Of a stretch of DNA of 64,000 nucleotides, positions 30,597 to 64,000 are shown in pieces (the first letter of the stretch is position 1; every line of letters starts with the position of its first letter). The notes below the pieces were generated by a model. It saw only the letters and a program-made list of their open reading frames with translations. It searched no databases and was not told where the DNA came from. The position numbers and the translations under genes were made by a program. The stretch spans positions 1,992-65,991 of the forward strand of contig CAYYPK010000017.1 of the NCBI GenBank assembly GCA_964473525.1, read 5' to 3'. This stretch comes from an uncultured bacterium (GTDB lineage Bacteria > Poribacteria > WGA-4E > GCA-2687025).

Positions 30597-30640
30597 CTCC
30601 CACACGCCCGCGACGCCGCCGCGAAACGCGGTAAGACCCC

Positions 30641-37306: not shown

Positions 37307-37444
37307 GCGTGCGTTTCTCCCGTTGAAAGTTTGAGCAACAGGACCGGATTAGCGGGATGCGCCCGGCCGTTACCCACGTAGGCCGCTGGCGTGAACCAGC
37401 AACGAGACACGTTACCACGTATCCGCAGGTATCCGCAGTGGCCG

Positions 37445-38197: not shown

Positions 38198-38317
38198 ACA
38201 AACTCCTCCTTATGAACCCGGCGCCGCGCGGCGCGGCGCATGCGATCTGGGCCTGCGTCGACGCGCGATGCGACGGCAAGCCTACCACAGGATACGACAT
38301 ATGGCTCGCAGATGTAA

Positions 38318-38361
38318 CACAACGCCGGGCTTGACCACGGTTGATCTCGCCCGGCGTTGTG
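38318..38361 (-). terminator. Long GC-rich hairpin between paralogs C and B. Candidate terminator or attenuator.
   Basis: A perfect 13-bp inverted repeat, cacaacgccgggc (38318-38330) and gcccggcgttgtg (38349-38361), encloses an 18-nt loop. No clear U-tract. Confidence 0.35.
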
Positions 38362-38392
38362 CGATGTCGTAGACGGTTCTGTCGGCGCGGGG

Positions 38393-41569: not shown

Positions 41570-41581
41570 GATGCTGGATCT

Positions 41582-42844: not shown

Positions 42845-42894
42845 GTTGAGGTTCTCCTCGACCAGGCTGGCGCAGGCTCAGCCCTCGTGTGGGC

Positions 42895-44121
42895 CTAGCC
42901 CGCCTGCGGCGCGGTGGACGGCGCCCGAAGAAAGGCTAGCAGGCCCACGCCACCCAGGATCGCAACGCCTCCGCCAATCCTGAACACGACGGGCAAGCCT
43001 ACGTTCTGCGCGATGTACCCGCCTACCGGCGGGCCAATGATGCTTCCTACGGCCCAGGACAGTTGCAGCATACCCATGGCGCTGCCGCGTGCTGCGGGCT
43101 TGACCAGATCCGTGATGAGCGCGACTCCGACCGTATAGCCCGCGAAGCCCATGCCCCACAGAAACTGAGCGGCCACGACCCATCCGAGCGAAGGGGCCAG
43201 GCCGATGAGCGTCCAGCGCACGCCGCCCATGATGAACGCGACGACGAGAATCGGCTTGCGCCCCCAGTGGTCCGACGCCCAGCCAAGCGCAATCAGCGCG
43301 GGTATCTCCAGCAACGACGCCAGGCCGACAATCCGCCCTATGGACGCCTTCGACATGCCGAACGTCTCGTCGAGGTGATTCGACAGGAACTGGAAGCCCA
43401 TCGACGTGCCGATGGAGCTGACCGCCAGGCAGGTGTACATCACGACGAGGTTGCGCTCACGCAGCACATCTCGCCACGCGCCCCACTGTGAGCCGGACTC
43501 CCGGGGCGCCGGCGTTTCTTTGATCCCCAGGGACGTCACAACCAGGCAGCCCAGGTAGATCGCCGACCCGGTAAGGAACGTGCTAGCGTAGGTCGTATCG
43601 CGCGCCACCAGTGGAATCAGCGCGAAGGTGGCAAGAGCATAGCCGATGCTTCCCGACACGCGGTATTGGCCGTATTGGCGCCCGCGCGCGTTGTCGTGCA
43701 GCGTCGTCGTCACGAGGGCGTTGACGTTCAGGTTGTAGGCGATGAACGCCACGGCGATGAGGAACGTGACCCCCGCGAGCGTCCAGAACGTGTGGCTGAC
43801 GAGGTATAGGGCGGTCGCCGCGCTGGACAGCACGAAGCCAGCCATGATCCACGGCTTGCGGCGGCCCGAGCGGTCGGAGAGAATCCCAAACGCAAGGGGT
43901 ACGGAAGCCATCGTCGCGGATCGCACGAACCCTAGCCATCCGATCTGCTGAAACGTCAGCCCGACCCATGGCTCGCGAAAATAGAGACTACGCAGTGGGA
44001 ACACGATGCCCCACGCCACGTTGAACAGGGCCGTGAGACCCCAGCACACCAGGAAGTCGCGCGAACGCCACACCGACGTGGCGGGCCGAGAGTAGGGCGG
44101 TTCTGATCCAGGCAGGGACAA
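42895..44121 (-). CDS. MFS transporter (paralog 3 of 3)
   Basis: A 408-aa product with the same architecture and motifs (GILSDRSGRRKPWI, LGWASDHWGRKP). Confidence 0.8.
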   Translation of the reverse strand: MSLPGSEPPYSRPATSVWRSRDFLVCWGLTALFNVAWGIVFPLRSLYFREPWVGLTFQQIGWLGFVRSATMASVPLAFGILSDRSGRRKPWIMAGFVLSSAATALYLVSHTFWTLAGVTFLIAVAFIAYNLNVNALVTTTLHDNARGRQYGQYRVSGSIGYALATFALIPLVARDTTYASTFLTGSAIYLGCLVVTSLGIKETPAPRESGSQWGAWRDVLRERNLVVMYTCLAVSSIGTSMGFQFLSNHLDETFGMSKASIGRIVGLASLLEIPALIALGWASDHWGRKPILVVAFIMGGVRWTLIGLAPSLGWVVAAQFLWGMGFAGYTVGVALITDLVKPAARGSAMGMLQLSWAVGSIIGPPVGGYIAQNVGLPVVFRIGGGVAILGGVGLLAFLRAPSTAPQAG

Positions 44122-48032: not shown

Positions 48033-48764
48033 ATGTCGCACGATCTGACACCCGAACAGGTGGAGCAGTTCCGCGAGGACGGCTACCTCGGCCCCTTCGA
48101 GCTATGCCCGCCCGACGAGATGGCGCGCATCGCCGCGCGTGTAGACGCCGAAGTGCTTGCAGGCGAAGCCCCGCCACAAGGGCATCACCAGTCCCGGCAT
48201 CTAGACAGCCGGGTGGTCTACGACCTCTGCGCTCATGAAGCGATAGTGTCTCGCATGGCCAGCGTCTACGGGCCTGACCTGCTTCTCTGGCGTTCCCACT
48301 TCTTCCTGAAAGAACCGGGAGCGGCGGAAGTGCCGTGGCACCAGGATACGAACTACTGGCCGCTGGAGCCGCCGCTGAATATCTCGGCGTGGGTCGCTAT
48401 CGACGACGTGACGGTCGAGAACGCGTGCGTCAACATCATCCCCGGGTCGCACCAGAGCGTTGTCCCGCACGTACGCTCCCCGGAAGGGATGCTCTTCGCG
48501 GAGATGGCGGACATGGACTACATCGACACCTCGACGGCTGTCCCGATGGAACTGCGCGCCGGGGAGTTCTTCCTCTTCAACGAGCGCACGGTGCATCAGT
48601 CGGAGCCGAACCGCTCCGACCGCCGGAGGCTGGGGCTCGCGGTACGCGTGACGACGCCGATCGTCCGGGTGGACCACCGACGCCTCTTTCCGGGTCACAA
48701 GGCCGTCCCGCTGTGCGGCGAGGACCGTATGGACCTCAACGAAGTCGGCGCCCCGCCGGACTGA
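48033..48764 (+). CDS. Phytanoyl-CoA dioxygenase (PhyH) family Fe(II)/2-oxoglutarate oxygenase
   Basis: WHQDTNYWPLEP fits the HxD region, and IIPGSHQ places the distal His in a PhyH-like context. Confidence 0.8.
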   Translation: MSHDLTPEQVEQFREDGYLGPFELCPPDEMARIAARVDAEVLAGEAPPQGHHQSRHLDSRVVYDLCAHEAIVSRMASVYGPDLLLWRSHFFLKEPGAAEVPWHQDTNYWPLEPPLNISAWVAIDDVTVENACVNIIPGSHQSVVPHVRSPEGMLFAEMADMDYIDTSTAVPMELRAGEFFLFNERTVHQSEPNRSDRRRLGLAVRVTTPIVRVDHRRLFPGHKAVPLCGEDRMDLNEVGAPPD

Positions 48765-48773
48765 CGCCGTTGC

Positions 48774-49586
48774 CTACAGTGCCACGTTCTCGGGGCCGAA
48801 GTAGTCGTTTGGCTGCGCCTTCGAGAAGTCGTGATGCCACACGCCTCGGAATAGCGTCCTGCGTTTCGGGGGCATCGCCCCAATCACCTCGGTCGGCAGA
48901 TTCAGCTTGTGGTACTGCGCGTCGGCGTTGCTGTAGCAGTTGAAGACGGCAACGCGCGGGTTCTCCTTCGTCTTCCACACCGGGCCAGCGTGGTTCACGC
49001 TTTCAGAGAAGATGATCGCCGACCCGGGGGGACACTCATACGTCTCGAACAGCGGGGAGTCGAAGCCCTGGTGCGACTCGGGGATCGGGAAGTTCATCTT
49101 GTGACTGCCGGACATGACGAGCGTGCCGCCCTCGCCCTTCCGCACGGGGTTGAGCTCCCACGCCACCCGCGTCAGGCCGCTGTAGATGCTGCCGTTCTGG
49201 TAGGAGTACTTGTGGACTCCTACTCCGAGGCCGCCGCCGTGCGGCTCGAGTCCCACCTGCCCCTCGCTGCGGATCATCGGGAAGCTATTCTCGCATCGGA
49301 AGCCGTAGCACCCTTCGTGACGGTCGCCGCCCAAGACGCCACGCAGGATCGTCACGATCGCTGGGTGGTCCACCAGCACTTGGGCAGGGCCGCTTAGCGA
49401 GTATCGGTCCTTCGGGTCAAGGCTGTCGCGGTCGTCCCGTAGCGCGTAGACGTGCTCGCGGATGGCGGCTACCTCGTCCGCGGCGAGTATGCCGGGAAGC
49501 AGAAGCCACCCTTTCAGGTCGAAGACGAACTTCTGCTCGTCGGTCATCGGCAGCGCGGCGTCGAGGGGGTGATCTTCGTAGGCCAC
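48774..49586 (-). CDS. PhyH-like/cupin-fold hypothetical protein (paralog 1 of tandem pair)
   Basis: A GTG start at 49584-49586 is preceded by aggaga. This gives VAYEDHPLDAALPMTDEQKFVFDLKGW..., collinear with the paralog's MTYEDHPADAALPMTDEQKFIFDLKGW. The longer track ORF to 49727 adds an Arg-rich extension judged spurious. The iron-binding motif is non-canonical (LEPHGGG ... SGSHK). Confidence 0.55.
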   Translation of the reverse strand: MAYEDHPLDAALPMTDEQKFVFDLKGWLLLPGILAADEVAAIREHVYALRDDRDSLDPKDRYSLSGPAQVLVDHPAIVTILRGVLGGDRHEGCYGFRCENSFPMIRSEGQVGLEPHGGGLGVGVHKYSYQNGSIYSGLTRVAWELNPVRKGEGGTLVMSGSHKMNFPIPESHQGFDSPLFETYECPPGSAIIFSESVNHAGPVWKTKENPRVAVFNCYSNADAQYHKLNLPTEVIGAMPPKRRTLFRGVWHHDFSKAQPNDYFGPENVAL

Positions 49587-49660
49587 GAGGGTCTCCTGGG
49601 TCAGGGCGAGTAGCGGACGCAGAGATCCTCTCGCCAGGCTTCTCCGCGCTCGCGCGTGCG

Positions 49661-50467
49661 CTACAGGGCCACGTTCTCGTCGCTGAAGTAGTCGTTCGGC
49701 TGCGCCTCGGCGAAGTTGTGATGCCACACGCCTCGGAAGAGCGTCCGACGCTTCGGGGGCATCGCCTCAATCACCTCGGTCGGCAGGTTGAGCTTGTGGA
49801 ACTGCGCGTCGGCGTTGCTGTAGCAGTTGAACACGGCGACGCGCGGATGCTCCTTCGTCTTCCACAGCGGGCCAGCGTGGTTCACGCTCTCGGAGAACAT
49901 GATCGCGGAACCCGGCGGGCACTCGTACGTCTCGAAGAGCGGGGAGTCGAAGCCCTTGTGCGACTCGGGAATCGGGAAGTTCATTTTGTGGCTGCCAGAC
50001 ATGACGAGCGTGCCGCCCTCTCCCTTCCGAACCGGGTTCAGCTCCCACGCGACCCGGGTGAGGCCACTGTAGATGTCGCCATTCTGGAAGGAGTAGCTGT
50101 GCAGGCCTCTGGGGCCTGCGTGAGGTACCAGCCCGACTTCCCCCTCGCTGCGGATCATCGGGAAGCTGTTCTCGCACCGGAAGCCGTAGCAACCGTCATG
50201 GCGGTCCGCGCCCAGCACCCCGCGCAACACCGAGACGATCGCGGGATGGTCCACCAGGATCTGCGCCGGGCCGCTGAGCGAATAGCGGTCCTTTGGATCA
50301 AGGCTGTCGCGGTCGTCCCTCAGCGCGTAGATGTGCTCACGGATAGCGGCCACTTCGTCGTCCGCAAGCAGTCCAGGGAACAGGAGCCACCCCTTCAGGT
50401 CGAAGATGAACTTCTGCTCGTCGGTCATGGGTAGGGCGGCGTCGGCTGGGTGGTCCTCGTACGTCAT
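49661..50467 (-). CDS. PhyH-like/cupin-fold hypothetical protein (paralog 2 of tandem pair)
   Basis: A 268-aa product about 80% identical to the adjacent paralog. Confidence 0.65.
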   Translation of the reverse strand: MTYEDHPADAALPMTDEQKFIFDLKGWLLFPGLLADDEVAAIREHIYALRDDRDSLDPKDRYSLSGPAQILVDHPAIVSVLRGVLGADRHDGCYGFRCENSFPMIRSEGEVGLVPHAGPRGLHSYSFQNGDIYSGLTRVAWELNPVRKGEGGTLVMSGSHKMNFPIPESHKGFDSPLFETYECPPGSAIMFSESVNHAGPLWKTKEHPRVAVFNCYSNADAQFHKLNLPTEVIEAMPPKRRTLFRGVWHHNFAEAQPNDYFSDENVAL

Positions 50468-50828
50468 GTCTTTCCTCCTCTGTCGTCCGGGGAGGCGAGC
50501 ATACGCGTCGCGCGGCGTCGCTGCAAACCGCCTTGAACGGCGCCGCCGGCCTCGGAGGATCTGTCGGCCGAAGTCCGACGGTCCTGGACGGTAGATGCGA
50601 CAGCCGGCGCGCGGCCCAGCATGGCCTGCGAGGCGACGTTGGAAGCACGTGGTTCACGAAGCAGGCGATCCCCCGAATAGAGAAGGACATCCTTGCCTGC
50701 CACCGGTACTGGGCGGTCACCGGCCGAGAGTGTCAGGTTGCGCGAGTGAGGGCAGGGAAACTATACTCTACACTGGTGTAACTGGGTGTGGGGCCGACAT
50801 GGGGTCATCCGTTCGTGGAGGCGAGGAT

Positions 50829-51875
50829 ATGCTGTCGGAGCACAGAACACCGCAACGACGCGAACATCCGCAGGCAGGGAGGCCATGCCACGTGGTCGGT
50901 CTGCTGTCTCTGCTTGTGCTGTTGGCAGCGGCCGCGCACGCACGCTCCCACGGGGAGCTGATCCTGTACGAGCACATCACCGGCCCCCGCGACGATCGCG
51001 AATACAGTCTCCGCACGATGGCTCCGGACGGTTCGAACGATACGTGGCTGGCGGTGGGGTTCGCGCGCGGACACGACTGGTCGCCCGACGGGTCGACGAT
51101 TGTGCTGGCAGGACTCGAGGTGATGTCGACGCTACGATGCGACGGCACGATGGTCTCGCAAACGCCCCTTCCACCCGGCATGGGGTCCGCCGAGCCCGCA
51201 TGGTCGCCAGACGGACTTAGAGTTGCGTTCTGGGCCGAAACCCGCGGACTCACGCATATCTGGATGCTGGAGTTGGCCACCGGCGCCCTTGTGGACCTCA
51301 CTGTGCCACAGGTACCCGCACGCATCCCAAGGGAGCACAGCCCGTCGTGGTCGCCCGATGGGACGCAGCTTGTGTACGACTCAAGCCGCGATCGGGAGTT
51401 CTGGTTGCGGCCCGAGGGTGACCCTCGTGGCGCGGCGCTGACGGCGGACCTGCACATCATGACGGATGCTGGCGCCCACGTGGTAAACCTGACGCAGAGC
51501 CTGGACCACGAGTACGATCCTGCGTGGTCGCCGGCTGGCCATGAGATCGCGTTCCTCAGACGTCCCGAAGGCGGCTTCGCATCCGTGTTCGTACTCGACA
51601 TCGACGCCGGAACCGAGTGGCGACTCACCGACGACGACATAGGGGCGCGGGACCCCTCGTGGGCGCCAGATGGACAGCGCATCGTCTTTGCGGCATTCGA
51701 CGCCAAGAACCCGTCGGGGTGGGACATCTTCGTGGTTGATCGCGACGGCGGCGCCCTGGCTCAGATCACCGACCACGGAGGCGAGTTGGCGCGGCGGCCC
51801 ATATGGTTCGATCCCGGCCTCGACGCATCCGCGGCGGGAAAGCTGCCCACCATGTGGGGAGAACTGAAATGGTGA
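50829..51875 (+). CDS. Secreted TolB-like WD40/PD40 beta-propeller repeat protein (paralog 1)
   Basis: The start is ATG 50829 with ggagg 7 nt upstream, in frame inside track ORF 50595..51875. The signal peptide is MLSEHRTPQRREHPQAGRPCHVVGLLSLLVLLAAAAHA. Repeated WSPDG motifs (DWSPDGS, PAWSPDGL, PSWSPDGT, PAWSPAGH, PSWAPDGQ) mark the PD40 repeats. The C-terminus is ...AAGKLPTMWGELKW. Confidence 0.7.
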   Translation: MLSEHRTPQRREHPQAGRPCHVVGLLSLLVLLAAAAHARSHGELILYEHITGPRDDREYSLRTMAPDGSNDTWLAVGFARGHDWSPDGSTIVLAGLEVMSTLRCDGTMVSQTPLPPGMGSAEPAWSPDGLRVAFWAETRGLTHIWMLELATGALVDLTVPQVPARIPREHSPSWSPDGTQLVYDSSRDREFWLRPEGDPRGAALTADLHIMTDAGAHVVNLTQSLDHEYDPAWSPAGHEIAFLRRPEGGFASVFVLDIDAGTEWRLTDDDIGARDPSWAPDGQRIVFAAFDAKNPSGWDIFVVDRDGGALAQITDHGGELARRPIWFDPGLDASAAGKLPTMWGELKW

Positions 51876-52951
51876 CACGAGCGACGAGGCTACGGATGCG
51901 ACACTGGGGCCGGGGTAGCGTGGGTCGCGTAGGCATCTGCATCGCCGTCGTCCTTGCGCATGTCATCTTCGCCGGTAGCGTCCTGGCACGCCCGCAGACC
52001 CCGCTGATCGTGTACCAGCATATGGTTAGGAGGGGAGACGACCTCGCGGTCAACCTGCGCACGATGGAGCCGGACGGCTCGAACGACAAGTGGCTCGCGA
52101 AGGACGGGTGGCAGCCGGGCCCCGACTGGTCGCCCGACGGTTCCCGCATCGTGCTGGGTTCGGCAGAGAACGTGTTGGTGACAATGCGTTGTGACGGGAC
52201 GGATCGCAGGGCAATCGGGCTCCCCGAAGGCGTTCGGCCCATGGAACCGAGGTGGGCGCCAGACGGACGCCGTGTGGTCTTCTATGCCTATGTTCCCATC
52301 GCAGTGGCCAACTGGCGCCCACACGTCTTCGTGCTGGACACGGCTACTGAGGCGCTGACGGATCTTACCGAGGCAATCGGAGGGGACCTCCTATGGGATG
52401 AACGCCCACACTGGTCTCCCGATGGGACGCGGATTGTGTTCGATTCGCTACGGGACAGGGAGTTCTGGGCGGAACAGCCAGACGCTGCGAAGCAGAAGGG
52501 CGCCCTGACCGCGGACCTGCATGTGATGACGGCTGACGGCGTCTACATCCGTAACCTCACGCAGAGCAAGGACAGCGAGGAGGATCCCGCATGGTCGCCC
52601 GACGGTGAGTTCATCGCGTACACGTGGAGGGGGCCCAACGCCAGTCCACCGCAAGTAGGGGTACGGGATGTCGCGACGGGTCGTACCCGACTACTCACCG
52701 AGCCCGAGCTGTGGGCAAGTGATCCGTCCTGGTCCCCGGACGGCGGGCGGATCATGTTCTCCGCAGCTGAATCGAGGAATCTAGCCAAGGGCTCGAACGT
52801 ATTCGCGATAGGCCGGGACGGCGGGAATCTGACCCAGCTCACCCACTACGAGTGGGAGTCCGCAAGAGAGCCAGCTTGGTTCGATCCTGGCCTCGCGGTA
52901 TCTCCCGCAGCGAAACTGCCGACGATGTGGGGCGAACTGAAGTGGTGGTAG
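51869..52951 (+). CDS. Secreted TolB-like WD40/PD40 beta-propeller repeat protein (paralog 2)
   Basis: The ATG at 51869 follows ggggaga and overlaps the previous stop (aaATGgTGA). The signal-like N-terminus is MVTRATRLRMRHWGRGSVGRVGICIAVVLAHVIFAGSVLA. It has the same WSPDG repeats and ends ...AAKLPTMWGELKWW. Confidence 0.7.
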   Translation: MVTRATRLRMRHWGRGSVGRVGICIAVVLAHVIFAGSVLARPQTPLIVYQHMVRRGDDLAVNLRTMEPDGSNDKWLAKDGWQPGPDWSPDGSRIVLGSAENVLVTMRCDGTDRRAIGLPEGVRPMEPRWAPDGRRVVFYAYVPIAVANWRPHVFVLDTATEALTDLTEAIGGDLLWDERPHWSPDGTRIVFDSLRDREFWAEQPDAAKQKGALTADLHVMTADGVYIRNLTQSKDSEEDPAWSPDGEFIAYTWRGPNASPPQVGVRDVATGRTRLLTEPELWASDPSWSPDGGRIMFSAAESRNLAKGSNVFAIGRDGGNLTQLTHYEWESAREPAWFDPGLAVSPAAKLPTMWGELKWW

Positions 52952-53193
52952 CGTGACCCGCGTCGCGCGCCTGCGGACGACCCGCCGGTCTACGACACCG
53001 CCGTTTCTTGGGACCAGGTATGCTGCGTCAGAAGCTGGGCCGCCGGGACCGAATCACATCCGTGCATCCGCTCATGGAAACTCACGCGCGTGGCGCGTCG
53101 CATGGCGTGCGAGATGCGTGAGTCCCTTCGCTCGCAGGGACAGGTCACGATGAGGTCGGGGCCTGGCAGTCAGCGGCATGGGAGCGGCGACCA

Positions 53194-53910
53194 TTAGTCG
53201 CTGGCTGCATCCTCGAGGAGTCCGGCGATCTCCTCGCGGGGCATGCGGCGGAACTTGCGGCGGCCGCGGCTTTCGGCGAGCGTCGCGACCTCGAGTCGGT
53301 CGGCTGCGAGTCTGTCGTCCTCACCTTCGCTCTCGCGCGTGGCGTCGAGCGCTTGCACGCCCAGGCGAACAACATCCGGCAGCGACAGGTCGTCCTCGTA
53401 TCGCTCGGCGAGCCACTCCCGGATCTCCTTCGCCTTCCCGCCTATGACGGCGGTCTTCTCGTCGTCCGCGAGAATGCCGTTGTACGAGATGCGGTACAGG
53501 CGATTGGTCGAGTAGCCGGGCTCACCGAGCTCGGCGATGAGGAGTTCCACCTCGAAGGGCTTCGTATCGAACTGGCGCCATACGCCGCCGATGTACTGCG
53601 AATACAGGTTGGCGAGCCATCTCGCCGTGACATCCTCGCGGCTGTACGTGTACCCCTTGACCTCGGCTTGCTCAATGCCGATGGTGCGCATCACCTCGTA
53701 TTCCTGGATGTTCCCGACGGCGGCGAGGGAGAGGCGATCGTAGATCTCTGACACCTTGTTCAGCGTGCGGCTGGCGTTCTCGGCAACGAAGGCGATGCCA
53801 CCCTCGTAGTCCATCGCGATGACATCTCGCCCGAACTGCACGCCCTTCCGGGCGAGTTCGTCCTTCTCGGTCATGATCTGTTCGGGCGACGCGAAGATGG
53901 GCGATGCCAT
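53194..53910 (-). CDS. prcA: 20S proteasome alpha subunit
   Basis: A 238-aa product. It lies immediately downstream of prcB on the same strand, and its length and sequence blocks (YDRLSLAAVGNIQEYEVMR...ELLIAELG) resemble bacterial PrcA. Confidence 0.8.
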   Translation of the reverse strand: MASPIFASPEQIMTEKDELARKGVQFGRDVIAMDYEGGIAFVAENASRTLNKVSEIYDRLSLAAVGNIQEYEVMRTIGIEQAEVKGYTYSREDVTARWLANLYSQYIGGVWRQFDTKPFEVELLIAELGEPGYSTNRLYRISYNGILADDEKTAVIGGKAKEIREWLAERYEDDLSLPDVVRLGVQALDATRESEGEDDRLAADRLEVATLAESRGRRKFRRMPREEIAGLLEDAASD

Positions 53911-53975
53911 GCGTTGGTAACTCCGTCAACGTGTCCGTGTGGGCGTCGCTACGGACGCTCGAAGCGGGTCTCGGC

Positions 53976-54824
53976 TCAGTCGTCGGCGTCGGCCCGGCGG
54001 GCTCCGTGGTCGCGCCGCCACTCGTCCAAAAACGCCTCGGCGGTTTCCCTCAGATGCTGCTCTGGCACGGGCTCGGTGCCCTCGGCGACGATGAGCTTCA
54101 TCGTGGGGAAGATCCCGCGCATGAAATCGAAGCCCTGGGTGGCGACATCCTCGTCGCTCGCATCCAGCAACGCCTCTACGGCGAACTGCACCGCTTCGTC
54201 GCGATCGACGCCGGCGTGGTACCGCTTCTTCAGCGTGTTGCGCGCGTCCTTCCCGCCGGAGCCCGTCGCGTAGTAGTCGAGTTCCTCGTACCGCCCGCCG
54301 ATGGGGTCGTACTTGTAGATGCGCCCTTCGCGCTTGCGGCTGTCGTAGCCCGCGAAGATCGGCACGACGACCAACCCCTGCATCGCGGCGGGTAGGTTCT
54401 GGCGCAGGAGCAGGCTGAGATAGTTCGCCTTGCCCTCGAGGCTCAGCGCGATCCCCTCGACCTTCTCGTAGAATTCGAGCTGCGTGCGCAGGAGCTTCGC
54501 CATCTGCGTCGCGGGCGCGGCCACTCCGGCGATGGCCATGGCGCAGTGCTCGTCCATCTCGAACACTTTGTCGATGGCGCGGTCAGCGACTTCGTAACCC
54601 GCCGTCGCCTGCCGGTCACCTGCGATCAACACGCCGCCCTCGAAGCGGATGGCGAGAATCGTCGTGCCGTGTGGGAGGCGATCGATGTCCACGCCGCCCG
54701 CCACGGCGGGGCCTCCTGGCGATTCAGAGCTCGCGCGGAAGCTGTTCGGGAGGAGATCTGGATGGCGGTCGCGCAGTAGACCGATGAAGTCAGACTGAAC
54801 GGAGCGGGTGTCCTCGGCGGTCAA
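53976..54824 (-). CDS. prcB: 20S proteasome beta subunit with propeptide
   Basis: A propeptide is followed by HGTTILAIRFEGGVLIAGDRQAT, with the catalytic Thr at the mature N-terminus. Confidence 0.85.
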   Translation of the reverse strand: MTAEDTRSVQSDFIGLLRDRHPDLLPNSFRASSESPGGPAVAGGVDIDRLPHGTTILAIRFEGGVLIAGDRQATAGYEVADRAIDKVFEMDEHCAMAIAGVAAPATQMAKLLRTQLEFYEKVEGIALSLEGKANYLSLLLRQNLPAAMQGLVVVPIFAGYDSRKREGRIYKYDPIGGRYEELDYYATGSGGKDARNTLKKRYHAGVDRDEAVQFAVEALLDASDEDVATQGFDFMRGIFPTMKLIVAEGTEPVPEQHLRETAEAFLDEWRRDHGARRADADD

Positions 54825-54909
54825 GTCTCGTCGGAACAGAGTAGTGCCCTTTCACCGCGATCAAGCCGGGCGGGGAACGCCGTGCGCCACGAGCGACCAC
54901 TGCCGGGCC

Positions 54910-55128
54910 TCACTCGCCACCACGCTGAATGTAGTTCTCGACGAACTCTTCCGCGTCCTCTTCGAGCAGCTCGTCGATCTCATCGAGCAGCTTGTCGATG
55001 TCGCCCGTCAGAGCTTCACCGTCCTCGATGATCTCCTGATTCGGCTCCTCGGTCGAAGCTTCCTCGTGCTCCTCCTCGCGGGTTTCCTCGCGAGTCTGCT
55101 CTTCCTGTCGGCGTTCGGATGACGGCAT
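54910..55128 (-). CDS. pup: Prokaryotic ubiquitin-like protein Pup, ending in GGE
   Basis: A 72-aa acidic, disordered N-terminus and a C-terminal LLDEIDELLEEDAEEFVENYIQRGGE compare with Mtb Pup (...LLDEIDDVLEENAEDFVRAYVQKGGQ). The terminal Glu means no deamidation is required. Confidence 0.85.
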   Translation of the reverse strand: MPSSERRQEEQTREETREEEHEEASTEEPNQEIIEDGEALTGDIDKLLDEIDELLEEDAEEFVENYIQRGGE

Positions 55129-56655
55129 CTATCTTCCTCCCGCGTCGTCCGCGTCGGGCTTGGCCTCAATGGCCTCCAACAATTCCGCGGCGGAATTGCA
55201 CTCCTGCAAGAGGGCGCCCACCATGTCGCGCGTGCCACGCTGCGGATACTGCATCGGCACCTTCTGCAGCGACTTGCCCTCTACGTCGAAGATGAGCGAA
55301 TTCCAACTGGCCGCGTGGATCTCTCCGGGGAACCGCTTGAGACATGTTCCCCTGAAAAAGGCCCGCGTGTCCAGCGGCGGGTTAGTTATAGCGTGAATGA
55401 CCTCGTCCTGCGACACTACGCGACGGACGCGCCCGGCCTTCTGCAACCGATGGAACACGCCGACATTCGGTCGTATATCGTGGTATTGCAGGTCCAGCAT
55501 CGACAGGCGATGGTCGTTCCACTTGAGGCCGTGGCGTTCACGAAACGCCCGCAGCCAGGCGTACTTGATAACCCAGTCGATGTCGCGCTGTAGCTTCATC
55601 GGGTCGTCGCCCAGCGCGTCCAAGACTTCACCCCACTTCTCGACGACGTCCGCGGTGACTTCGTGGTGGGGATCGTTGGCTGCGTTCGCAGTGACGTATT
55701 CCACGGCCAGCCTTTGGTACGCGCGCTGGATATCGAGCGCCGACATCTCGCGCGCGCCTTCCAGTGGCAGCCCCTCGGAGCACGTGAGATCCCGTGACAC
55801 GCTCTTCATTGCCGCGACAGGGTCGCGCAAGCGGAATTCCCCGCCAACGACGCCATCCTCGATCATCTGAAGGACGACCGCCGTCGTGCCTACCTTGAGG
55901 TAGGTCGTGTACTCGGACATGTTCGCGTCGCCGACGATCACGTGGAAGCGACGATGCTCCTTCTCGTCCGCGTGCGGCTCGTCGCGCGTGTTGATGATGG
56001 GGCGGTCCACCATGGTGGACAGGCCGACCTCGGTCTCGAAGAAGTCGGCGCGCTGCGATATCTGGAAGTCCGCGTCGTCGGCGCCGTTTTCCGCGCCCGT
56101 CTTGCCGCTACCGGTGAATATCTGGCGCGTCACGAGGAACGGCGTCATGCCGTCCACCAGCGTCTGGAAGGGGATGCCGCGGTCCACGAGGTAGTTCTCG
56201 TGACAGCCGTAGCTGTGTCCCTTCCCGTCAGAGTTGTTCTTGTAGATGATGAGTTCGCGCTGGTTGTCGAGCAGTTGCTCGGCGATGCGGCAGCTCATGT
56301 CCAGGATCAACTCGCCAGCGCGGTCGTACACGACGAGATCGCGCGCGTTCGTGCATTCCGGCGTGCAGTATTCCGGGTGGGCGTGGTCGACGTAGTAGCG
56401 GCCGCCGTTTGTCAGAATGTCGTTGATGACGGCGTTGGTCTCGTCGTCCGGGGTGGGGCCGTTCACGTCCGTCTGGAAGCCGCGGGCGTCGAGGAGCGGG
56501 TTCTCCTCCTCATAGTCCCACACCACGCTACGGACCTCGCGATCCTTGTAGCTGTTGACGACGAGCGTCGAGGACGCCACGGGGTCAAAGTCTGCCGCGT
56601 GGCGGACCATGATCCCGTATTCCGTCTCGACACCCATGATCTTCGGCTGAGCCAC
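55129..56655 (-). CDS. dop: Dop, the Pup deamidase/depupylase (PafA/Dop carboxylate-amine ligase family)
   Basis: MGVETEYGI, YVDHAHPEYCTPEC, IYKNNSDGKGHSYGCHENYL, IINTRDEPHADEKEHRRFHVIVGDANM and SWNSLIFD are collinear with Mtb Dop blocks. Its position between mpa and pup matches the canonical mpa-dop-pup-prcB-prcA order. Confidence 0.8.
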   Translation of the reverse strand: MAQPKIMGVETEYGIMVRHAADFDPVASSTLVVNSYKDREVRSVVWDYEEENPLLDARGFQTDVNGPTPDDETNAVINDILTNGGRYYVDHAHPEYCTPECTNARDLVVYDRAGELILDMSCRIAEQLLDNQRELIIYKNNSDGKGHSYGCHENYLVDRGIPFQTLVDGMTPFLVTRQIFTGSGKTGAENGADDADFQISQRADFFETEVGLSTMVDRPIINTRDEPHADEKEHRRFHVIVGDANMSEYTTYLKVGTTAVVLQMIEDGVVGGEFRLRDPVAAMKSVSRDLTCSEGLPLEGAREMSALDIQRAYQRLAVEYVTANAANDPHHEVTADVVEKWGEVLDALGDDPMKLQRDIDWVIKYAWLRAFRERHGLKWNDHRLSMLDLQYHDIRPNVGVFHRLQKAGRVRRVVSQDEVIHAITNPPLDTRAFFRGTCLKRFPGEIHAASWNSLIFDVEGKSLQKVPMQYPQRGTRDMVGALLQECNSAAELLEAIEAKPDADDAGGR

Positions 56656-56682
56656 TGCCGTACCTTAACCCGTGGTAAGCGA

Positions 56683-58482
56683 CTACAGGTACTGCCCTGG
56701 AGTCACGGTGCGCACTTCGCGCTTCTTCTCCTGCTCTTCGGCCTGCACGAGCATCTTCACGTTCACGATGCGTTCGCCCTTGCGGCCGGAGATACTGGCC
56801 CACTCGTCGGGGTTCTTCGTGTTCGGCAGATCCTCGTTCTCCTTGAACTCGTCACGGATCGCTCGTTTCAGGTCGTCGGCTGAGAGCCCCTTGTCGCCAC
56901 CGTCGATGACGCGCTTTAGCGCGTATTTCTTCGCGCGCGCGACGATGTTCATCACCATGGCGCCGCTGGCGAAGTCCTTGAAGTAAAGCACCTCGCGCTC
57001 GCCTCGCGAGTACGTCAGCTCGAGGAAGCGGTTGTCCTCGTCCTCGGCGTACATCGTCTCGGACGCCGTGTCGATCAGTCGCGCGACGGCCTGCGGCTTG
57101 TCTTCCCCAGCGTGCGCGGCGGATTCCGCGATAGGGATATCCGGGGTCAGGTAGATGGAGAAAATGTCGCGCGCCTGCGCCTGGTCGGGTCTGTCGATCT
57201 TGATCTTGACGTCGAGCCTACCGGGCCGGAGGACGGCTGGGTCGAGAAGATCCTGCCGGTTGCTTGCGCCGATGACGATGACGTTGCGCAGCCCTTCGAC
57301 GCCGTCAATCTCAGCGAGGAACTGTGGCACCAACGTCGACTCCATGTCCGACGAGATCCCTAGTCCGCGCGTGCGGAACAGGGAGTCCATCTCATCGAAG
57401 AAGATGACGACAGGCATGCCTTCCTGAGCTTTCTCGCGCGCCCTGGCGAACACTTCGCGTATCTTGCGCTCCGTCTCCCCGACGTACTTGTTGAGGAGTT
57501 CCGGGCCCTTGATGTTGATGAAGAACGCCCGGATGTTCTCGTCGCCGGTCAGGTCGCGCGCCTTCTGAGCGATGTTGTTCGCGACGGCCTTCGCGACGAG
57601 CGTCTTCCCACAGCCAGGTGGCCCGTAGAGCAGGATGCCCTTCGGGGGGCTGAGGTCGAATTCCTTGAACTGATCCGGGTAGAGGTACGGTAGCTCCACC
57701 GCGTCCCGGATTTGCTCGATTTGGTCGTCGAGGCCGCCGATCTTCGAATACTCGACGTCGGGTACCTCTTCGAGCAGCAGGTCGTCCGCCTCGACCTTCG
57801 GCAGCTTGTCGATGAGCATCCCAGTCTGCGAGTTCAGCAGGACGCTGTCGCCTGCTTTCAGACCGTCCTCCCCGACGGCTCCTGCGATCTCGACGACGCG
57901 CTCTTCGTCGGCGCGCATCGTTACGAGAGCGCGCGTCTCATCGAGTATGTCCTTGATCTTCACGACCTCGCCTTGCAGGTCGGTCGGCGCAACGGCGACG
58001 ACGTTGTACGCGCCGTTGACGATGACTTCCTGCCCCTTGTACAGGTCGTCCACGACGATGCTGGGATCAAGGTTGACCCGCATCTTCTTACCGAGCAGGT
58101 TGATGTTCGCCGTGCCGTCTTCGTTCTGGTTCAGGTAGGCGCCGTAGTTGTTCGGCGGCGCGCTGAGCTTTTCGACCTTCTCACGGAGCAGCTCGAGCTG
58201 CTCACGCGCTTCCTGGAGCGTGGCGGTGAGTTCGCGATTGCGGCGGTGTAGCTTGACCAGGTCGCGGGTGGCGTCATAGAGCTTTGCTTCCGCATCGTCG
58301 GAAGACGCCGCGTTCAGCTTGCGGCGCAGATCGCCCATCTCCGTCTGCATGATCTCGATAATGCCATCGAGTTCGCGGATGCGTTCGATGTACGCTCGAG
58401 CGTCCTCGGTGAACGTCTCCTCGCGACGGCTCGCGTCACGCCCGCGGGTGTGTTCCTGATCTGACGTCTGTTCCGGCGCCAT
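56683..58482 (-). CDS. mpa: Proteasome-associated AAA+ ATPase (Mpa/ARC)
   Basis: A 599-aa product with an N-terminal coiled coil, an OB/interdomain region and an AAA+ module (LLYGPPGCGKTL Walker A). The C-terminal ...TPGQYL is the GQYL proteasome-docking motif. Confidence 0.9.
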   Translation of the reverse strand: MAPEQTSDQEHTRGRDASRREETFTEDARAYIERIRELDGIIEIMQTEMGDLRRKLNAASSDDAEAKLYDATRDLVKLHRRNRELTATLQEAREQLELLREKVEKLSAPPNNYGAYLNQNEDGTANINLLGKKMRVNLDPSIVVDDLYKGQEVIVNGAYNVVAVAPTDLQGEVVKIKDILDETRALVTMRADEERVVEIAGAVGEDGLKAGDSVLLNSQTGMLIDKLPKVEADDLLLEEVPDVEYSKIGGLDDQIEQIRDAVELPYLYPDQFKEFDLSPPKGILLYGPPGCGKTLVAKAVANNIAQKARDLTGDENIRAFFINIKGPELLNKYVGETERKIREVFARAREKAQEGMPVVIFFDEMDSLFRTRGLGISSDMESTLVPQFLAEIDGVEGLRNVIVIGASNRQDLLDPAVLRPGRLDVKIKIDRPDQAQARDIFSIYLTPDIPIAESAAHAGEDKPQAVARLIDTASETMYAEDEDNRFLELTYSRGEREVLYFKDFASGAMVMNIVARAKKYALKRVIDGGDKGLSADDLKRAIRDEFKENEDLPNTKNPDEWASISGRKGERIVNVKMLVQAEEQEKKREVRTVTPGQYL

Positions 58483-58767
58483 CGCGTACCCCCTCCGGCG
58501 AGTTAGAACCGTGATGAACCCGCTCCATTAGCCGTGTCCGCGCCCTCTCGCGAGAGTGGGCCATTGTAGCATTCCGGCCCCGGGTCGTCAACATACGCCC
58601 GGCGTAGACCGCGCTACTAGACGCCCGTGGACGCCCCGTGCGCTTTCATTATACGACGCGCGGCCTCCACCACGAATAGGTGACGGGGCATCACGGCCGA
58701 CCGCCCCGACTCTACAAACGCGCGCGGCTATCTACTAACGCGCCGCTCCCGGCCCATGATGACCCGG

Positions 58768-59616
58768 CTACGCGCCATGGCTCTCGCGGAGGAAACCCAT
58801 CGCCGGGGCGACTTCGTTGGGAAAGTCGCGCCAGTTGCACTCCACGGAAATACGCGAGTCGTAGCCCGCCTCCGCGAGAGCCGCCCAGAAGCCTGGGTAG
58901 TCGTACGACCCCGTTCCCGGATGCAGTCTGCCCGTGTCCGCGACGTGTACATGTGTCAGTTGGGCGCCGGCGTCCGCGATGTTTGAGAGCGGCTCGTCCT
59001 CCTCGTCCATGTGGTAGAAGTCGGCGAGGACGGTGACTTCGGGCATGTCCACGCGTTCCGCCACGGCGCACGCTTCCTCGACACTTGTCAGGATGTTCGA
59101 TTCCTTCGTGTTCAGCGGCTCAATGGCCACTGTGACGGCGTGCTTGCGCCCCTGCGCTCCTGCGAAGCTCAGGAACTCCAGGATCTCGGCGTCAGCAGCG
59201 TCGCGCGAGTAGCCGTCTGGCACGTTGCGCGCCCCGCCGCTGCCGAAGACGACAACCTGGCCCCCGGCGGCTCCGACGCGCTCGATGGCCGTGCTCACGT
59301 AATCCTCTACGCGCGCCCAGTCTCGCTCCGGCCCCACGAGACGGACGGACGGGGCGATGAAGCTGTTGAAGCACTCGGCCGTCAATGGGGCGTCGGCGAG
59401 CGCGGCTCGGAAGCTCTCGAACGACGCCTCGGGTAGGTCTGGGCCGACCATCCCTACTCCGAATTCCATGAAGTCGCACCCAGCGTCCACGAGAACCTGG
59501 ATGGCGTCCGGCACTTTCTCGACCTGGGCTTGGTGCGCGCTCCCGGCGTCCAACTGGCCGGCGCCGGAGGTCGGTGGGACGAACGAAGCGAGAGCGACGC
59601 AGCATCCGAATCGCAT
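58768..59616 (-). CDS. Sugar phosphate isomerase/epimerase (xylose isomerase-like TIM barrel) family protein
   Basis: The 282-aa product has AP-endonuclease-2/TIM-barrel-like blocks (VAIEPLN, ADFYHMDEED, HVHVADTGR). Confidence 0.65.
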   Translation of the reverse strand: MRFGCCVALASFVPPTSGAGQLDAGSAHQAQVEKVPDAIQVLVDAGCDFMEFGVGMVGPDLPEASFESFRAALADAPLTAECFNSFIAPSVRLVGPERDWARVEDYVSTAIERVGAAGGQVVVFGSGGARNVPDGYSRDAADAEILEFLSFAGAQGRKHAVTVAIEPLNTKESNILTSVEEACAVAERVDMPEVTVLADFYHMDEEDEPLSNIADAGAQLTHVHVADTGRLHPGTGSYDYPGFWAALAEAGYDSRISVECNWRDFPNEVAPAMGFLRESHGA

Positions 59617-61508: not shown

Positions 61509-63014
61509 CTACGCGTACTTGCGTTCGAGGCTACCGGACGCCATGTCGCGCACGTGCTGCTCGGTCTCGGTTCCGAACTTCTCGCGCACCATGCCGAGGT
61601 AGGACGGGCTGCTGTAGTACGTGTCGAAGGCGGCGTCGCGGAAGCGCAAGACTTCCGATCCAGACAGATGCTTGGTGGGGAGTGGGAGCGTGTCGTACGC
61701 ATGCTGCGAGTAGCCGCTCCACGTGTCCGGCAGGCGCCACCCCTCGGCCACGGCTTGCGTGTAAAGCGGGGATCCCGGGTACGCCATCGCGCAGTAGAAG
61801 TTCGCGAACTCCGTGTTCAGTTCGAGGGCCATGTCGAGGGTGGCCTGCATCGTGTCGTGGTCGTCCTCGGGCAGGCCGAATATGTAGTTGCCCATGACGC
61901 GGATGCCGGACGCTGTCACGGCGCGGAGCGTCCCGCGGGCGGAGTCCTCGTCGAAGCCCTTGTCCACGTCGGATCGGACGCGCTCACTACCCGCCTCGAT
62001 GCCGAAGCACAGCCATGTGAAGCCGGCGGCGCGTAGCATGTCGAGCATGTCGTCCTGCACGGAGTCGACACGGGCGTACGCCCATATGTTCAGGTCGTAG
62101 CCGCGCTCGATGATGCGTTCGCAGATGCCCGTCACGTGTCGTCGGTTGAGGACGAACATCTCGTCGGCGACTTTGATGTTCCGCACGCCGTGCTCCCGCA
62201 CGAGATAGTCGATCTGGTCGACCACGACGTCCGGGCTCCACCGTCGGTAGCTGTTCGCCGATTCCTTGTAGCCCAGAAGCCGCTCGCCGTCCTTGAACGG
62301 CGCCTGTATGCAGCAGAACGAACACTTGTACGGGCATCCAAGGGTTGTGTAGACGGCAGCGTACGGTTGGCGCTGTAGATCGTCGAAGCAGTGCCAGTTG
62401 TGCGCCCGATACTCGTCCATCGGCAGTAGATCCCACGCCATGTGGGGCATCTCGCCGTCGAGATCCTGCAACAGCGGAGCGGGAGGATTCGATGCGCAAG
62501 CGCCATCGTCCTCGTACCAGAGCCCGGCGACCTTGCGGATGTCCTCAGCGCGTCCGCCGCGCAGCGCCTCCAGCAACTCGATGATCGTGTGCAGCCCTTC
62601 TCCGCCGCTCACGTACTCCGCGTCTTCCTCGCGCAGCGTGCGTTCGGGCAGCGACGCGACGTGTCCACCAACGAGTAGCGTGGGGGCCTCGGCGGCGTCC
62701 TTCAGGGCTGTGCACACGGCGCCGGCAGCAGGCATGTTCTGCGTCGAAGCCGATGGCTGGTGTCCGTATACAACCACGGCGGTCAGCAGCGGGTTGAGCC
62801 CCGCTACCCGACTCGCGACCTGCTCAGGTGAGATCGCCTCGGCGTTCATGTCCAGGAGCGCGACGGACCAACCCTTGAGACGCGCGTACGTCGCGATCAT
62901 CGCGGCCCACACGGGAGGCTCAATTGCCGCCAGATCTGCCCCGAGGGACTGATACACCTGAAAGCGGGAGCCCGGGTTCACGATCACAAGATCGACTTCG
63001 CGTCTGTTCGCCAT
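61509..63014 (-). CDS. B12-binding radical SAM protein (class B radical SAM family)
   Basis: The N-terminal cobalamin-binding-like domain (EVDLVIVNPGSRFQVY...) is followed by a CxxxCxxC cluster motif (GCPYKCSFC). The start is chosen at ATG 63012-63014 (MANRREVD...). The track ORF extends to 63092. Confidence 0.75.
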   Translation of the reverse strand: MANRREVDLVIVNPGSRFQVYQSLGADLAAIEPPVWAAMIATYARLKGWSVALLDMNAEAISPEQVASRVAGLNPLLTAVVVYGHQPSASTQNMPAAGAVCTALKDAAEAPTLLVGGHVASLPERTLREEDAEYVSGGEGLHTIIELLEALRGGRAEDIRKVAGLWYEDDGACASNPPAPLLQDLDGEMPHMAWDLLPMDEYRAHNWHCFDDLQRQPYAAVYTTLGCPYKCSFCCIQAPFKDGERLLGYKESANSYRRWSPDVVVDQIDYLVREHGVRNIKVADEMFVLNRRHVTGICERIIERGYDLNIWAYARVDSVQDDMLDMLRAAGFTWLCFGIEAGSERVRSDVDKGFDEDSARGTLRAVTASGIRVMGNYIFGLPEDDHDTMQATLDMALELNTEFANFYCAMAYPGSPLYTQAVAEGWRLPDTWSGYSQHAYDTLPLPTKHLSGSEVLRFRDAAFDTYYSSPSYLGMVREKFGTETEQHVRDMASGSLERKYA

Positions 63015-63019
63015 GCCTG

Positions 63020-64000
63020 CTACGCCTTTCGCGCTCGATCCGGCTCGCCCGTGGCCGGCACGCCCGTGGGAAGAGCGTTGAGTATGTCGCACAGCCGTTC
63101 GATCTTCTCTCGTTCCAGTCCGGGATAGTTGCCGATGTAGAACCCGTAGAAGTGCACATGCTCCGTGTGCGGATAGCTTGCGTAATCCAGTTCGCCCAAA
63201 GCCCTGCGCAGGTACGGCTGCCGCATCTGCGAGCCGCCGCCCGACAGCCCACGACGGTACTCGACACCGTGAGCGCGCAACGCGCTCGTCACCGCCTCGT
63301 ACAGCACGGGATCGGCGTGACGCTGCACGAGCGTGAAGGCGTAGTTGCTGCTACCCTCCGTGTGGAACTCCGTGCGGTACTTGTCTCCGTCCAACCGCGA
63401 GAGAAACGCCGCCAGGTTCTCCGAGCGGATGGTGTTGTTCGCGTCGAGCCGCCGCAACTGCGATCTGCCCATCGTGGCGGCGATCTCGTTGCTGCGTACG
63501 TTGTAGCCCGGATAGGCGAAGATGAAGTCCGGCGTGAGATCGTCACGCTCGGTGGCGTAACGGTCTTTGACGTCCTGAGAGCGCGCCTCTCTCACCATCC
63601 CGTGCGCGCGGAACATGCGCAGCATGTCGTACAGATCGGGATCGTCCGTGGAGACCATGCCCCCTTCGCCCGTGGTCATGTGATGGGCGTAGTAGAACGA
63701 GAAATTAGAGGCGAGACCGAACGTGCCGATCTTCCGGCCGCGGAAGGTGGCGCCGTGGGACTCGCAAGCGTCCTCGATGAGCGGCACGCCCCGCTCCGCC
63801 AGGCCTTCGAGCAGTTCGTCCGTGAGCGCGTTGTACCCCAGGACGTGGGTGAGGAAGACGGCGCGCGTTCGATCCGTGACGGCGTCTAAGACGCGGTTCG
63901 TGTCCATCCCCAGCGTGGTCGGGCTGATGTCGACGAACACGGGCTCGAAGCCAGCCGCCAGCACCGAGACGATGTCGGACACCCACGTGATCGTCGGCAC
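63020..64000 (-). CDS. DegT/DnrJ/EryC1/StrS family PLP-dependent sugar aminotransferase (C-terminal about 326 aa; the N-terminus lies beyond the window end)
   Basis: VFLTHVLGYNALTDELLEGLAERGVPLIEDACESHGATFRGRKIGTFGLASNFSFYYAHHMTTGEGGMVSTDD shows DegT-family blocks. The frame is open to 64000. The stop at 63020-63022 overlaps the next gene's start region. Confidence 0.8.
   Translation of the reverse strand: MPTITWVSDIVSVLAAGFEPVFVDISPTTLGMDTNRVLDAVTDRTRAVFLTHVLGYNALTDELLEGLAERGVPLIEDACESHGATFRGRKIGTFGLASNFSFYYAHHMTTGEGGMVSTDDPDLYDMLRMFRAHGMVREARSQDVKDRYATERDDLTPDFIFAYPGYNVRSNEIAATMGRSQLRRLDANNTIRSENLAAFLSRLDGDKYRTEFHTEGSSNYAFTLVQRHADPVLYEAVTSALRAHGVEYRRGLSGGGSQMRQPYLRRALGELDYASYPHTEHVHFYGFYIGNYPGLEREKIERLCDILNALPTGVPATGEPDRARKA

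Follow-up and report, generated by a model that had tools for sequence, protein, structure and literature searches.

A Pup-proteasome gene cluster of free-living marine Candidatus Poribacteria, very probably inherited vertically within the phylum and probably separated from its pafA gene

The closest described counterpart of the locus presented here is the Pup-proteasome system of Mycobacterium tuberculosis and other actinobacteria, in which the same genes follow one another in the same order. Pupylation of the Corynebacterium glutamicum type uses a Pup encoded with a terminal glutamate, or PupE (PMC3511204); Corynebacterium is devoid of 20S genes. Complete Pup-proteasome loci are also known outside Actinobacteria, in Nitrospirae (Leptospirillum), Verrucomicrobia and others (PMC2588565, PMC3511204). 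Searches of the literature that paired Poribacteria with proteasome, with pupylation or with ubiquitin-like protein brought up no published account of a poribacterial system. Lehmann et al. 2017 reportedly described UBact systems, in which Gram-negative lineages encode a Pup-like modifier next to homologs of the proteasome and the ligase, and their list of candidate phyla is said to include Poribacteria.

We analyzed a window of 64 kb, the whole stretch of DNA under study, in which positions 53194-58482 carry five co-directional genes of the minus strand in the order mpa-dop-pup(E)-prcB-prcA. Their open reading frames lie exactly at the following coordinates, given with the bit score against the NCBIfam equivalog model and its curated cutoff.

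56683..58482, minus strand: mpa/arc, proteasomal AAA+ ATPase, 599 aa (TIGR03689, 710 bits, cutoff 505)
55129..56655, minus strand: dop, predicted depupylase/deamidase of Pup, 508 aa (TIGR03688, 591 bits, cutoff 492)
54910..55128, minus strand: pup, prokaryotic ubiquitin-like protein, 72 aa (TIGR03687, 52.5 bits, cutoff 41.5; Pfam Pup, 63.5 bits)
53976..54824, minus strand: prcB, 20S proteasome beta subunit, 282 aa (TIGR03690, 266.5 bits, cutoff 192)
53194..53910, minus strand: prcA, 20S proteasome alpha subunit, 238 aa (TIGR03691, 259.5 bits, cutoff 139)

All five proteins (Mpa/ARC, Dop, Pup, PrcB and PrcA) exceed these cutoffs, with concordant Pfam assignments, and the block is identified by its sequence as a complete, ordinary Pup-proteasome gene cluster of known kind. 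Mpa starts with a coiled-coil region, continues with two OB domains and an AAA module and ends in the tail TPGQYL; Pfam recognizes Prot_ATP_ID_OB_N, Prot_ATP_ID_OB_C and AAA, and residues 68-599 align with M. tuberculosis Mpa (7px9), the terminal GQYL included. Dop aligns over its full length with Acidothermus Dop (4b0r/5lrt), across the Dop-specific loop (residues ~38-78) and the catalytic-Asp motif YVDHAHPEY. PafA structures align to it from residue 77 only, and the PafA model scores 404 bits, under its cutoff of 551; the predicted product of 55129..56655 is thus Dop, not PafA. The start codon of pup immediately adjoins the stop codon of dop. PrcB begins with a 53-residue propeptide followed by the catalytic Thr54 (Thr1). 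Its alignment with the beta subunits of Rhodococcus and M. tuberculosis includes the propeptide; mature PDB beta chains begin at its residue 54 (LPHG/TTILAI), and Thr1, Asp17 and Lys33 are in place.

The C-terminus of Pup reads YIQRGGE, the PupE form. Across 78 poribacterial loci the C-terminal pattern LLDEIDELLEED.EEFVENYIQRGG[EQ] is kept, with glutamate at the end in 26 and glutamine in 52. Since the terminal glutamate is already encoded, deamidation is not needed and the window's Pup is predicted to be ligation-competent as it stands. Measured against UBact, the poribacterial modifier would differ in exceeding the cutoffs of the Pup models and in its Pup-type GG[EQ] end. A first, sequence-only reading of this DNA had proposed the complete five-gene locus, an Mpa ending in GQYL, a Pup ending in GGE with no need of deamidation and a Thr1 propeptide on PrcB; gene order, the five equivalog models, the protein ends TPGQYL and RGGE and the alignment of mature beta chains at residue 54 bear out each of these points.

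The likeness to the M. tuberculosis and actinobacterial system extends from gene order to the GQYL tail of Mpa, to the loop and catalytic Asp motif of Dop and to the propeptide of PrcB with its LPHG/TT cleavage site, and the equivalog models passed by all five proteins were built on that system. There are four differences: the poribacterial host belongs to a candidate phylum of Gram-negative type, its Pup ends in Glu instead of Gln, the ancestral poribacterial pafA abuts prcA without intervening genes and has probably become detached in the host lineage, and genes resembling pafBC are missing near the locus. Indeed, no pafBC-, bpa- or PAC2-like gene was found among the neighbours scanned by Pfam. 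With C. glutamicum the locus shares a Pup encoded with a terminal glutamate and a retained dop, presumably kept for depupylation; unlike Corynebacterium, it carries prcB and prcA.

The likely mechanism is modelled on the homologous systems of mycobacteria and corynebacteria, from which we infer all biochemical activities. Pup would be synthesized already ending in glutamate, without a deamidation step, and the PafA ligase would consume ATP to join the side chain of this C-terminal glutamate to lysines of target proteins. The Mpa hexamer is expected to capture Pup through its coiled coils, then to unfold and thread the substrate, docking through its C-terminal GQYL tail onto a PrcA/PrcB 20S particle whose beta subunits would be activated by self-cleavage at Gly53/Thr54. 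Dop would reverse the tagging as a depupylase. In poribacterial MAGs these genes already receive their names from the public annotation pipeline, so the locus implies no new mechanism.

The host is identified, from homologs of the operon and flanking proteins, as a free-living marine member of the pelagic clade of Candidatus Poribacteria; the window is devoid of rRNA and ribosomal-protein markers. The best 80 of 418 Dop relatives, drawn from GTDB species-representative genomes, all belong to Poribacteria, the closest being 92% (ARS61) and 90% identical, and the named top protein matches are poribacterial throughout. For the flanking acetyl-CoA synthetase, the best named matches (76-91%) fall only in Poribacteria and other phyla reach at most 66%. 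On the same two lines of evidence an actinobacterial contig was rejected. The earlier reading was correct in placing the DNA outside Actinobacteria and mistaken in placing it in the FCB group or Gemmatimonadota, an attribution based on T9SS C-terminal domains elsewhere in the window. One such domain is supported in part, in the protein encoded at 20028-27677 (TIGR04183, 25.4 bits, cutoff 23; Pfam Por_Secre_tail, 20.4 bits, cutoff 27; FlgD_ig, 35.4 bits); the 3095-aa Calx-beta protein at 4665-13952 stays under the TIGR04183 cutoff of 23 with 19.8 bits. The use of these domains as a marker of the FCB group or Gemmatimonadota is rejected by direct taxonomy: one C-terminal domain of T9SS type proved a poor guide to the lineage.

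That the block might be mis-binned actinobacterial DNA, or that the contig might be chimeric at its prcA junction, has practically no chance of being true. Apart from the system's reputation as actinobacterial, nothing speaks for such an artefact. The flanking genes are poribacterial, the neighbouring gene on the upstream side is in synteny with poribacterial MAGs, and assemblies made by ENA, JGI and Logan from different samples have an identical junction.

The system is not confined to a few members of the phylum. Among the best 80 of 418 relatives, all of them Poribacteria and closed chromosomes included, 75 loci show one and the same order of the five genes; the Pup-proteasome is close to universal in Poribacteria. 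The sequence-only reading had assumed a sporadic distribution and a probable horizontal acquisition, and had suggested phylogeny and GC and codon usage as checks, a host-typical phylogeny being taken to indicate vertical inheritance. The distribution is not sporadic, and neither check favours acquisition. Poribacterial Dop proteins are monophyletic in 100/100 neighbour-joining bootstraps, with the Dop of the window nested inside the pelagic subclade; PafA is likewise monophyletic (100/100). The Dop tree is a neighbour-joining tree of a single protein, in which many sequences carry no label and the taxonomy of the others was read from database names. Sequence identity declines in step with the split between pelagic and sponge-associated lineages. 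Codon usage is host-typical: the pooled RSCU of the block correlates with that of flanking genes at r = 0.97, and GC3 of its four large genes, 0.84-0.87, lies within the host range. Recent transfer judged by composition was accordingly discarded. Shared gene order, Dop monophyly and host-like codon usage together argue for vertical inheritance within the phylum. In all likelihood, then, the locus is the canonical Pup-proteasome system of free-living marine Candidatus Poribacteria, transmitted vertically within the phylum, with pafA split off.

A recent arrival of an actinobacterial island in a non-actinobacterial host is very unlikely in the face of these data: the fully supported poribacterial Dop clade with the window inside its pelagic subclade, an operon syntenic in 75 of the 80 poribacterial species, closed chromosomes among them, and the agreement of codon usage and GC3 with the host all contradict it, and no mobile-element genes were seen adjoining the block. 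What can be said in its favour is that the closest non-poribacterial Dops, at 52-58% identity, are just slightly farther away than the most distant poribacterial ones (57%) and include MAGs labelled Actinomycetota and Acidimicrobiia, and that L001 and L002, the two closest relatives, have other sequences on both flanks of the 6.4-kb block.

Vertical inheritance within the phylum leaves room for an older event. The poribacterial locus resembles those of Nitrospirae and Verrucomicrobia in being a complete system with the same gene neighbourhood in a non-actinobacterial host; it differs from them in that those loci have been called sporadic, that of Leptospirillum being regarded as Acidimicrobiales-derived, whereas in Poribacteria the system spans the phylum and constitutes a clade of its own. 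We give an even chance to an ancient transfer between phyla, to or from the poribacterial ancestor, with an Acidimicrobiia-like actinomycetote or an Entotheonellia-like lineage as partner and vertical descent ever since. The neighbour-joining neighbours of the poribacterial Dop clade are clusters holding an Entotheonellia MAG and an 'Actinomycetota bacterium' MAG, followed by clusters labelled Acidimicrobiia; the representative nearest poribacterial PafA comes from Candidatus Moduliflexus, and an Acidimicrobiales origin has been proposed for the Nitrospirae system (PMC3511204). Against this, bootstrap values for the sister group are at most 60%, and the tree is that of one gene with sparse and possibly wrong MAG labels. 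The 50%-identity representative library behind these comparisons is an outgroup sample only, in which the query's own cluster representative is just 52% identical and only some clusters could be named. An ancient transfer would not conflict with the preferred account of the window. Rather doubtful is the idea that the systems of Poribacteria and of Entotheonellia- or Moduliflexus-type organisms form an old, vertically kept lineage of Gram-negative-type phyla and no recent actinobacterial offshoot. If true, it would reopen the questions of where the system arose and of whether Actinomycetota gave or received it, and the abundant closed poribacterial genomes could settle the matter.

The importance of these findings is modest. 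The host assignment is corrected to Poribacteria, and the Pup-proteasome becomes a core, phylum-wide trait of this phylum instead of a sporadic import. Poribacteria thus offer a large and well-sampled non-actinobacterial clade, with many closed genomes, in which to study the spread of bacterial proteasomes and pupylation.

The sole oddity of the cluster is that pafA has probably moved away. Elsewhere in the phylum this gene directly follows prcA in 74 of the 80 loci (best 80 of 418 relatives), and the ancestral poribacterial operon would have been mpa-dop-pup-prcB-prcA-pafA. In the 64-kb window, a tblastn search with Dop (E<=1e-5) returned dop itself as sole match and no second gene of the Pup-ligase family, in agreement with the earlier remark that the window holds no pafA. 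The place of the gene is taken by the following feature.

52952..53193, no strand assigned: intergenic region of 242 bp after prcA, a synteny breakpoint followed by convergent TolB/Tricorn-like genes

Homology to L002 stops at window position 53239, at the end of prcA. A pafA remnant in the spacer was considered and rejected, as the 242 bp share no homology with the spacer between prcA and pafA in L002. The junction between prcA and the TolB-like gene recurs in at least 10 contigs, which stem from at least 8 samples and were assembled by ENA, JGI and Logan; a chimeric junction was rejected on the strength of these independent contigs.

A full-length PafA gene was found in another context. Three contigs, L085, L088 and L093, are 99.99% identical to one another and show the gene order recX-UPF0020 followed by pafA-ppdK; their homology to L002 begins exactly at pafA, with 86% nucleotide identity, and the encoded protein is 97% identical to PafA of L002. 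The best model for poribacterial PafA is TIGR03686, at 506 bits, below the NCBI equivalog cutoff of 551. The detached pafA was found in JGI samples 3300008625 and 3300007504, both of which also hold the operon at 100% identity, and in sister samples of two ENA projects containing the host organism; it therefore co-occurs with the host in 4/4 sample sets, counting same samples and same-project sister samples. From this co-occurrence and a similar GC (0.65), in lieu of physical linkage, the pafA-ppdK contig is probably the ligase gene of the host genome. A rearrangement in the host lineage would have split the operon between prcA and pafA, and the most likely present site of the ligase gene is another part of that genome, with ppdK downstream of it and recX and a UPF0020 methyltransferase gene upstream. 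Other pelagic Poribacteria with a detached pafA are a Caspian MAG (L003/L083) and the chromosome OY762492.1 (L004/P0126).

Alternatively, pafA could be gone altogether, with Mpa-20S degrading untagged substrates or Dop doubling as ligase. Both the 64 kb empty of a Pup-ligase paralog and the ancestral position, without pafA in every assembly of the host organism, agree with such a loss. It is nonetheless improbable, since an intact, evidently constrained and ligation-ready pup makes little sense without a ligase, the full-length PafA gene (97% to L002) accompanies the organism in all four sample sets and other pelagic Poribacteria demonstrably retain theirs in detached form. Under relocation, the preferred reading, a proteasome operon and its ligase gene can lie apart, which matters when presence or absence of the system is scored from fragmentary MAG contigs.

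Two further features lie upstream of mpa.

58563..58591, minus strand: promoter-like site TTGACG-17-TACAAT preceded by a TG, some 80 bp ahead of the mpa start
58768..59616, minus strand: xylose-isomerase-like TIM-barrel gene (Pfam AP_endonuc_2)

The first is the sole sigma-70-like match in 52800-59000, a region for which shuffled sequence averages 1.0 matches, so that its position alone hints at a promoter role for this putative site. The TIM-barrel gene probably stands outside the Pup-proteasome system; close relatives keep it as a neighbour, with synteny to L001, L002 and L004.

Five co-directional open reading frames occupy 53194-58482 on the minus strand, exactly where the sequence-only reading had placed them, and form a Pup-proteasome system of a known kind:

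56683-58482, minus strand: mpa/arc, AAA+ ATPase of 599 aa ending in PGQYL
55129-56655, minus strand: dop, Pup-ligase-family protein of 508 aa
54910-55128, minus strand: pup, acidic protein of 72 aa ending in YIQRGGE
53976-54824, minus strand: prcB, proteasome beta subunit of 282 aa
53194-53910, minus strand: prcA, proteasome alpha subunit of 238 aa

All five score above the NCBIfam equivalog thresholds of their respective models (Mpa/ARC, Dop, Pup, PrcB and PrcA), Pfam domain calls are concordant, and the pup start codon abuts the dop stop codon. The 508-aa protein scores 591 bits with the Dop model, above the cutoff of 492, and 404 with that of PafA, below the cutoff of 551; its alignment with Acidothermus Dop spans the full length and takes in the Dop-specific loop as well as the YVDHAHPEY motif, whereas PafA structures are matched from its residue 77 only. 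Mpa was aligned with its M. tuberculosis counterpart through the terminal GQYL and PrcB with the beta subunits of Rhodococcus and M. tuberculosis, propeptide included, Thr54 coinciding with the start of the mature structure chains (LPHG/TTILAI) and Asp17 and Lys33 being in register. The reading's sequence-level observations, among them the GGE terminus of Pup, the GQYL terminus of Mpa and the Thr1 propeptide of PrcB, were thus all correct. Some 80 bp upstream of mpa lies a promoter-like site whose position is suitable but which statistically cannot be told from chance.

By homology, PupE would be competent for ligation as translated, PafA would join it to lysines of the targets, and Mpa would capture Pup and deliver the substrates to the PrcAB 20S core, onto which its GQYL tail may dock; Pup would be taken off by Dop. 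Pup C-termini across Poribacteria comprise 52 GGQ and 26 GGE, both forms being encountered in Actinobacteria as well, and dop is kept everywhere in Poribacteria because both occur.

When one genome of every GTDB species was scanned with Dop, 418 relatives were returned, the best 80 of which are MAGs or closed chromosomes all labelled Candidatus Poribacteria. The closest Dop proteins share 92% (Red Sea ARS61), 90% and 75% (Caspian) identity, the remaining ones of these 80 sharing 57-67%, and every named sequence among the top 113 matches in a large protein database is poribacterial. As an independent control on the host, the flanking acetyl-CoA synthetase (27902-29854), outside the block, finds its best named matches (76-91%) in Poribacteria only, other phyla reaching at most 66%. 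The earlier attribution to the FCB group or Gemmatimonadota, drawn from T9SS-like tails, was therefore wrong. Water-column MAGs are the nearest relatives of the window, with sponge-derived genomes at a greater distance, which fits the division of Poribacteria into pelagic and sponge-associated lineages (PMC8546597).

The system had also been regarded as sporadic and probably acquired horizontally. Searched by tblastn with the five window proteins, 75 of 80 poribacterial loci carry all five genes in an identical order; in the remaining five at least one gene gave no detectable match, three of these loci being truncated contigs and one missing the Pup match only. A neighbour-joining tree of the Dop/PafA family (452 aligned columns, 100 bootstrap replicates), built from poribacterial sequences, their nearest non-poribacterial matches and representatives of 50%-identity clusters, recovers poribacterial Dop, the pelagic Dop subclade holding the window and poribacterial PafA each as a single clade in 100/100 bootstraps. 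Codon usage of the block is typical of the host: its pooled RSCU correlates at 0.97 with that of 30 other window genes, and GC3, with a background range of 0.72-0.89, is 0.84-0.87 in the four large genes and 0.74 in the 72-codon pup. Since synteny, Dop monophyly and codon usage are all host-typical, recent horizontal acquisition is refuted by the criterion that the reading itself had set.

Deeper in the tree, the nearest Dop outgroups (52-58% identity) are clusters with an Entotheonellia MAG and with an 'Actinomycetota bacterium' MAG, followed by Acidimicrobiia-labelled clusters (44-48%); the sister group of the poribacterial Dop clade receives bootstrap support of 60% or less. For poribacterial PafA, the closest representative belongs to Candidatus Moduliflexus. 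Outside Actinobacteria, Pup-proteasome loci of sporadic distribution are already on record, and Acidimicrobiales were suggested as the source of the Nitrospirae system (PMC2588565, PMC3511204).

In 74 of 80 poribacterial loci, prcA is directly followed, after a median gap of about 150 bp between alignments, by a second Pup-ligase homolog sharing 40-47% identity with Dop, devoid of the Dop loop and best described by the PafA model. The sequence-only reading had noted no pafA downstream of prcA, and indeed no second Pup-ligase homolog was found anywhere in the 64-kb window, where convergent TolB/Tricorn-like genes follow prcA instead. Homology to L002, the closest relative whose sequence extends past prcA, covers the stretch between the upstream TIM-barrel gene (59617) and the prcA end (53239) at 81-82% nucleotide identity and goes no further. 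An assembly artefact at this junction is ruled out, because at least 10 contigs, drawn from at least eight samples (ENA, JGI and Logan assemblies), show the same junction, those compared by blastn being 99.97-100% identical to the window.

The L002 PafA used as query retrieved three contigs (L085, L088 and L093), mutually 99.99% identical, in which recX and a UPF0020 methyltransferase gene, not prcA, precede pafA-ppdK; their homology to L002 (86% nucleotide identity) starts exactly at pafA. Two JGI samples, 3300008625 and 3300007504, contain both these contigs and, at 100% identity, the window operon; the contigs are also present in sister samples of the two ENA projects containing the window organism. 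Most simply, a single rearrangement would have broken the ancestral operon between prcA and pafA and left the ligase gene elsewhere in the genome. Detachment occurred in further pelagic Poribacteria too: pafA lies on a separate contig of the Caspian MAG, in a MOSC/GFO_IDH context, and more than 8 kb from the operon on chromosome OY762492.1.

Related loci vary in other ways. Two tandem PafA-like genes, not one, follow prcA in two sponge-associated chromosomes (L014, 13776-16393; L015, 13591-16207), an insertion of about 1.2 kb separates prcB from prcA in the Caspian MAG (L003, 4965-6197), and one of about 1.7 kb separates dop from pup in another locus (L065, 11470-13216).

In poribacterial MAGs these genes already carry the labels Dop and Pup-protein ligase from the NCBI pipeline, and a 2017 UBact paper reportedly named Poribacteria among the phyla with Pup-like systems. 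We found no paper on a Pup-proteasome system in Poribacteria in the open-access literature; the small additions made here are its phylum-wide conservation and the split operon.

Elsewhere in the window, three giant proteins of surface type are clustered in 4665-27677:

giant protein 1: 3095 aa, 16 Calx-beta repeats
giant protein 2: 1412 aa, tandem-95 and cadherin-like repeats
giant protein 3: 2549 aa, many Ig-like domains, dockerin, C-terminal FlgD_ig/T9SS-type domain

The T9SS C-terminal domains claimed earlier stand in part: the adhesin at 20028-27677 exceeds the NCBIfam type A cutoff (25.4 against 23) but stays below threshold with the Pfam model, and the Calx-beta protein falls short of threshold for a T9SS-type domain. 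A common tail, [ST].WG.[LI]K plus 0-3 further residues, lies at the very C-terminus of five predicted proteins in 36584-39148 (minus strand) and 50595-52951 (plus strand). Its sequence is KLPTMWGELKW(W) in two TolB/Tricorn-like paralogs, and TTWGDIKTR, STVWGALKSR and SVLWGDLKSNR in three tandem paralogs of about 250 aa, without a match in a Pfam scan. The tail may act as a C-terminal tag for sorting or recognition that is specific to this lineage.

Two sets of paralogs, three tandem MFS transporters and three PhyH-family dioxygenases, are located in 40322-44121 (minus strand) and 48033-50467; the 84% nucleotide identity between the PhyH genes at 48774-49580 and 49661-50461 indicates recent tandem duplication. 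A contig from another sample (L087) is 99.7% identical to window 26441-31869 over the whole compared stretch, and its gene calls place a YggT-like gene and a methyltransferase at 31264-32046, a gap in the window gene map. Finally, a B12-binding radical SAM enzyme (61509-63092, minus strand) adjoins a DegT/DnrJ-type aminotransferase that reaches the window edge (63020-64000), and the pair may be part of a cluster for the modification of sugars or natural products.
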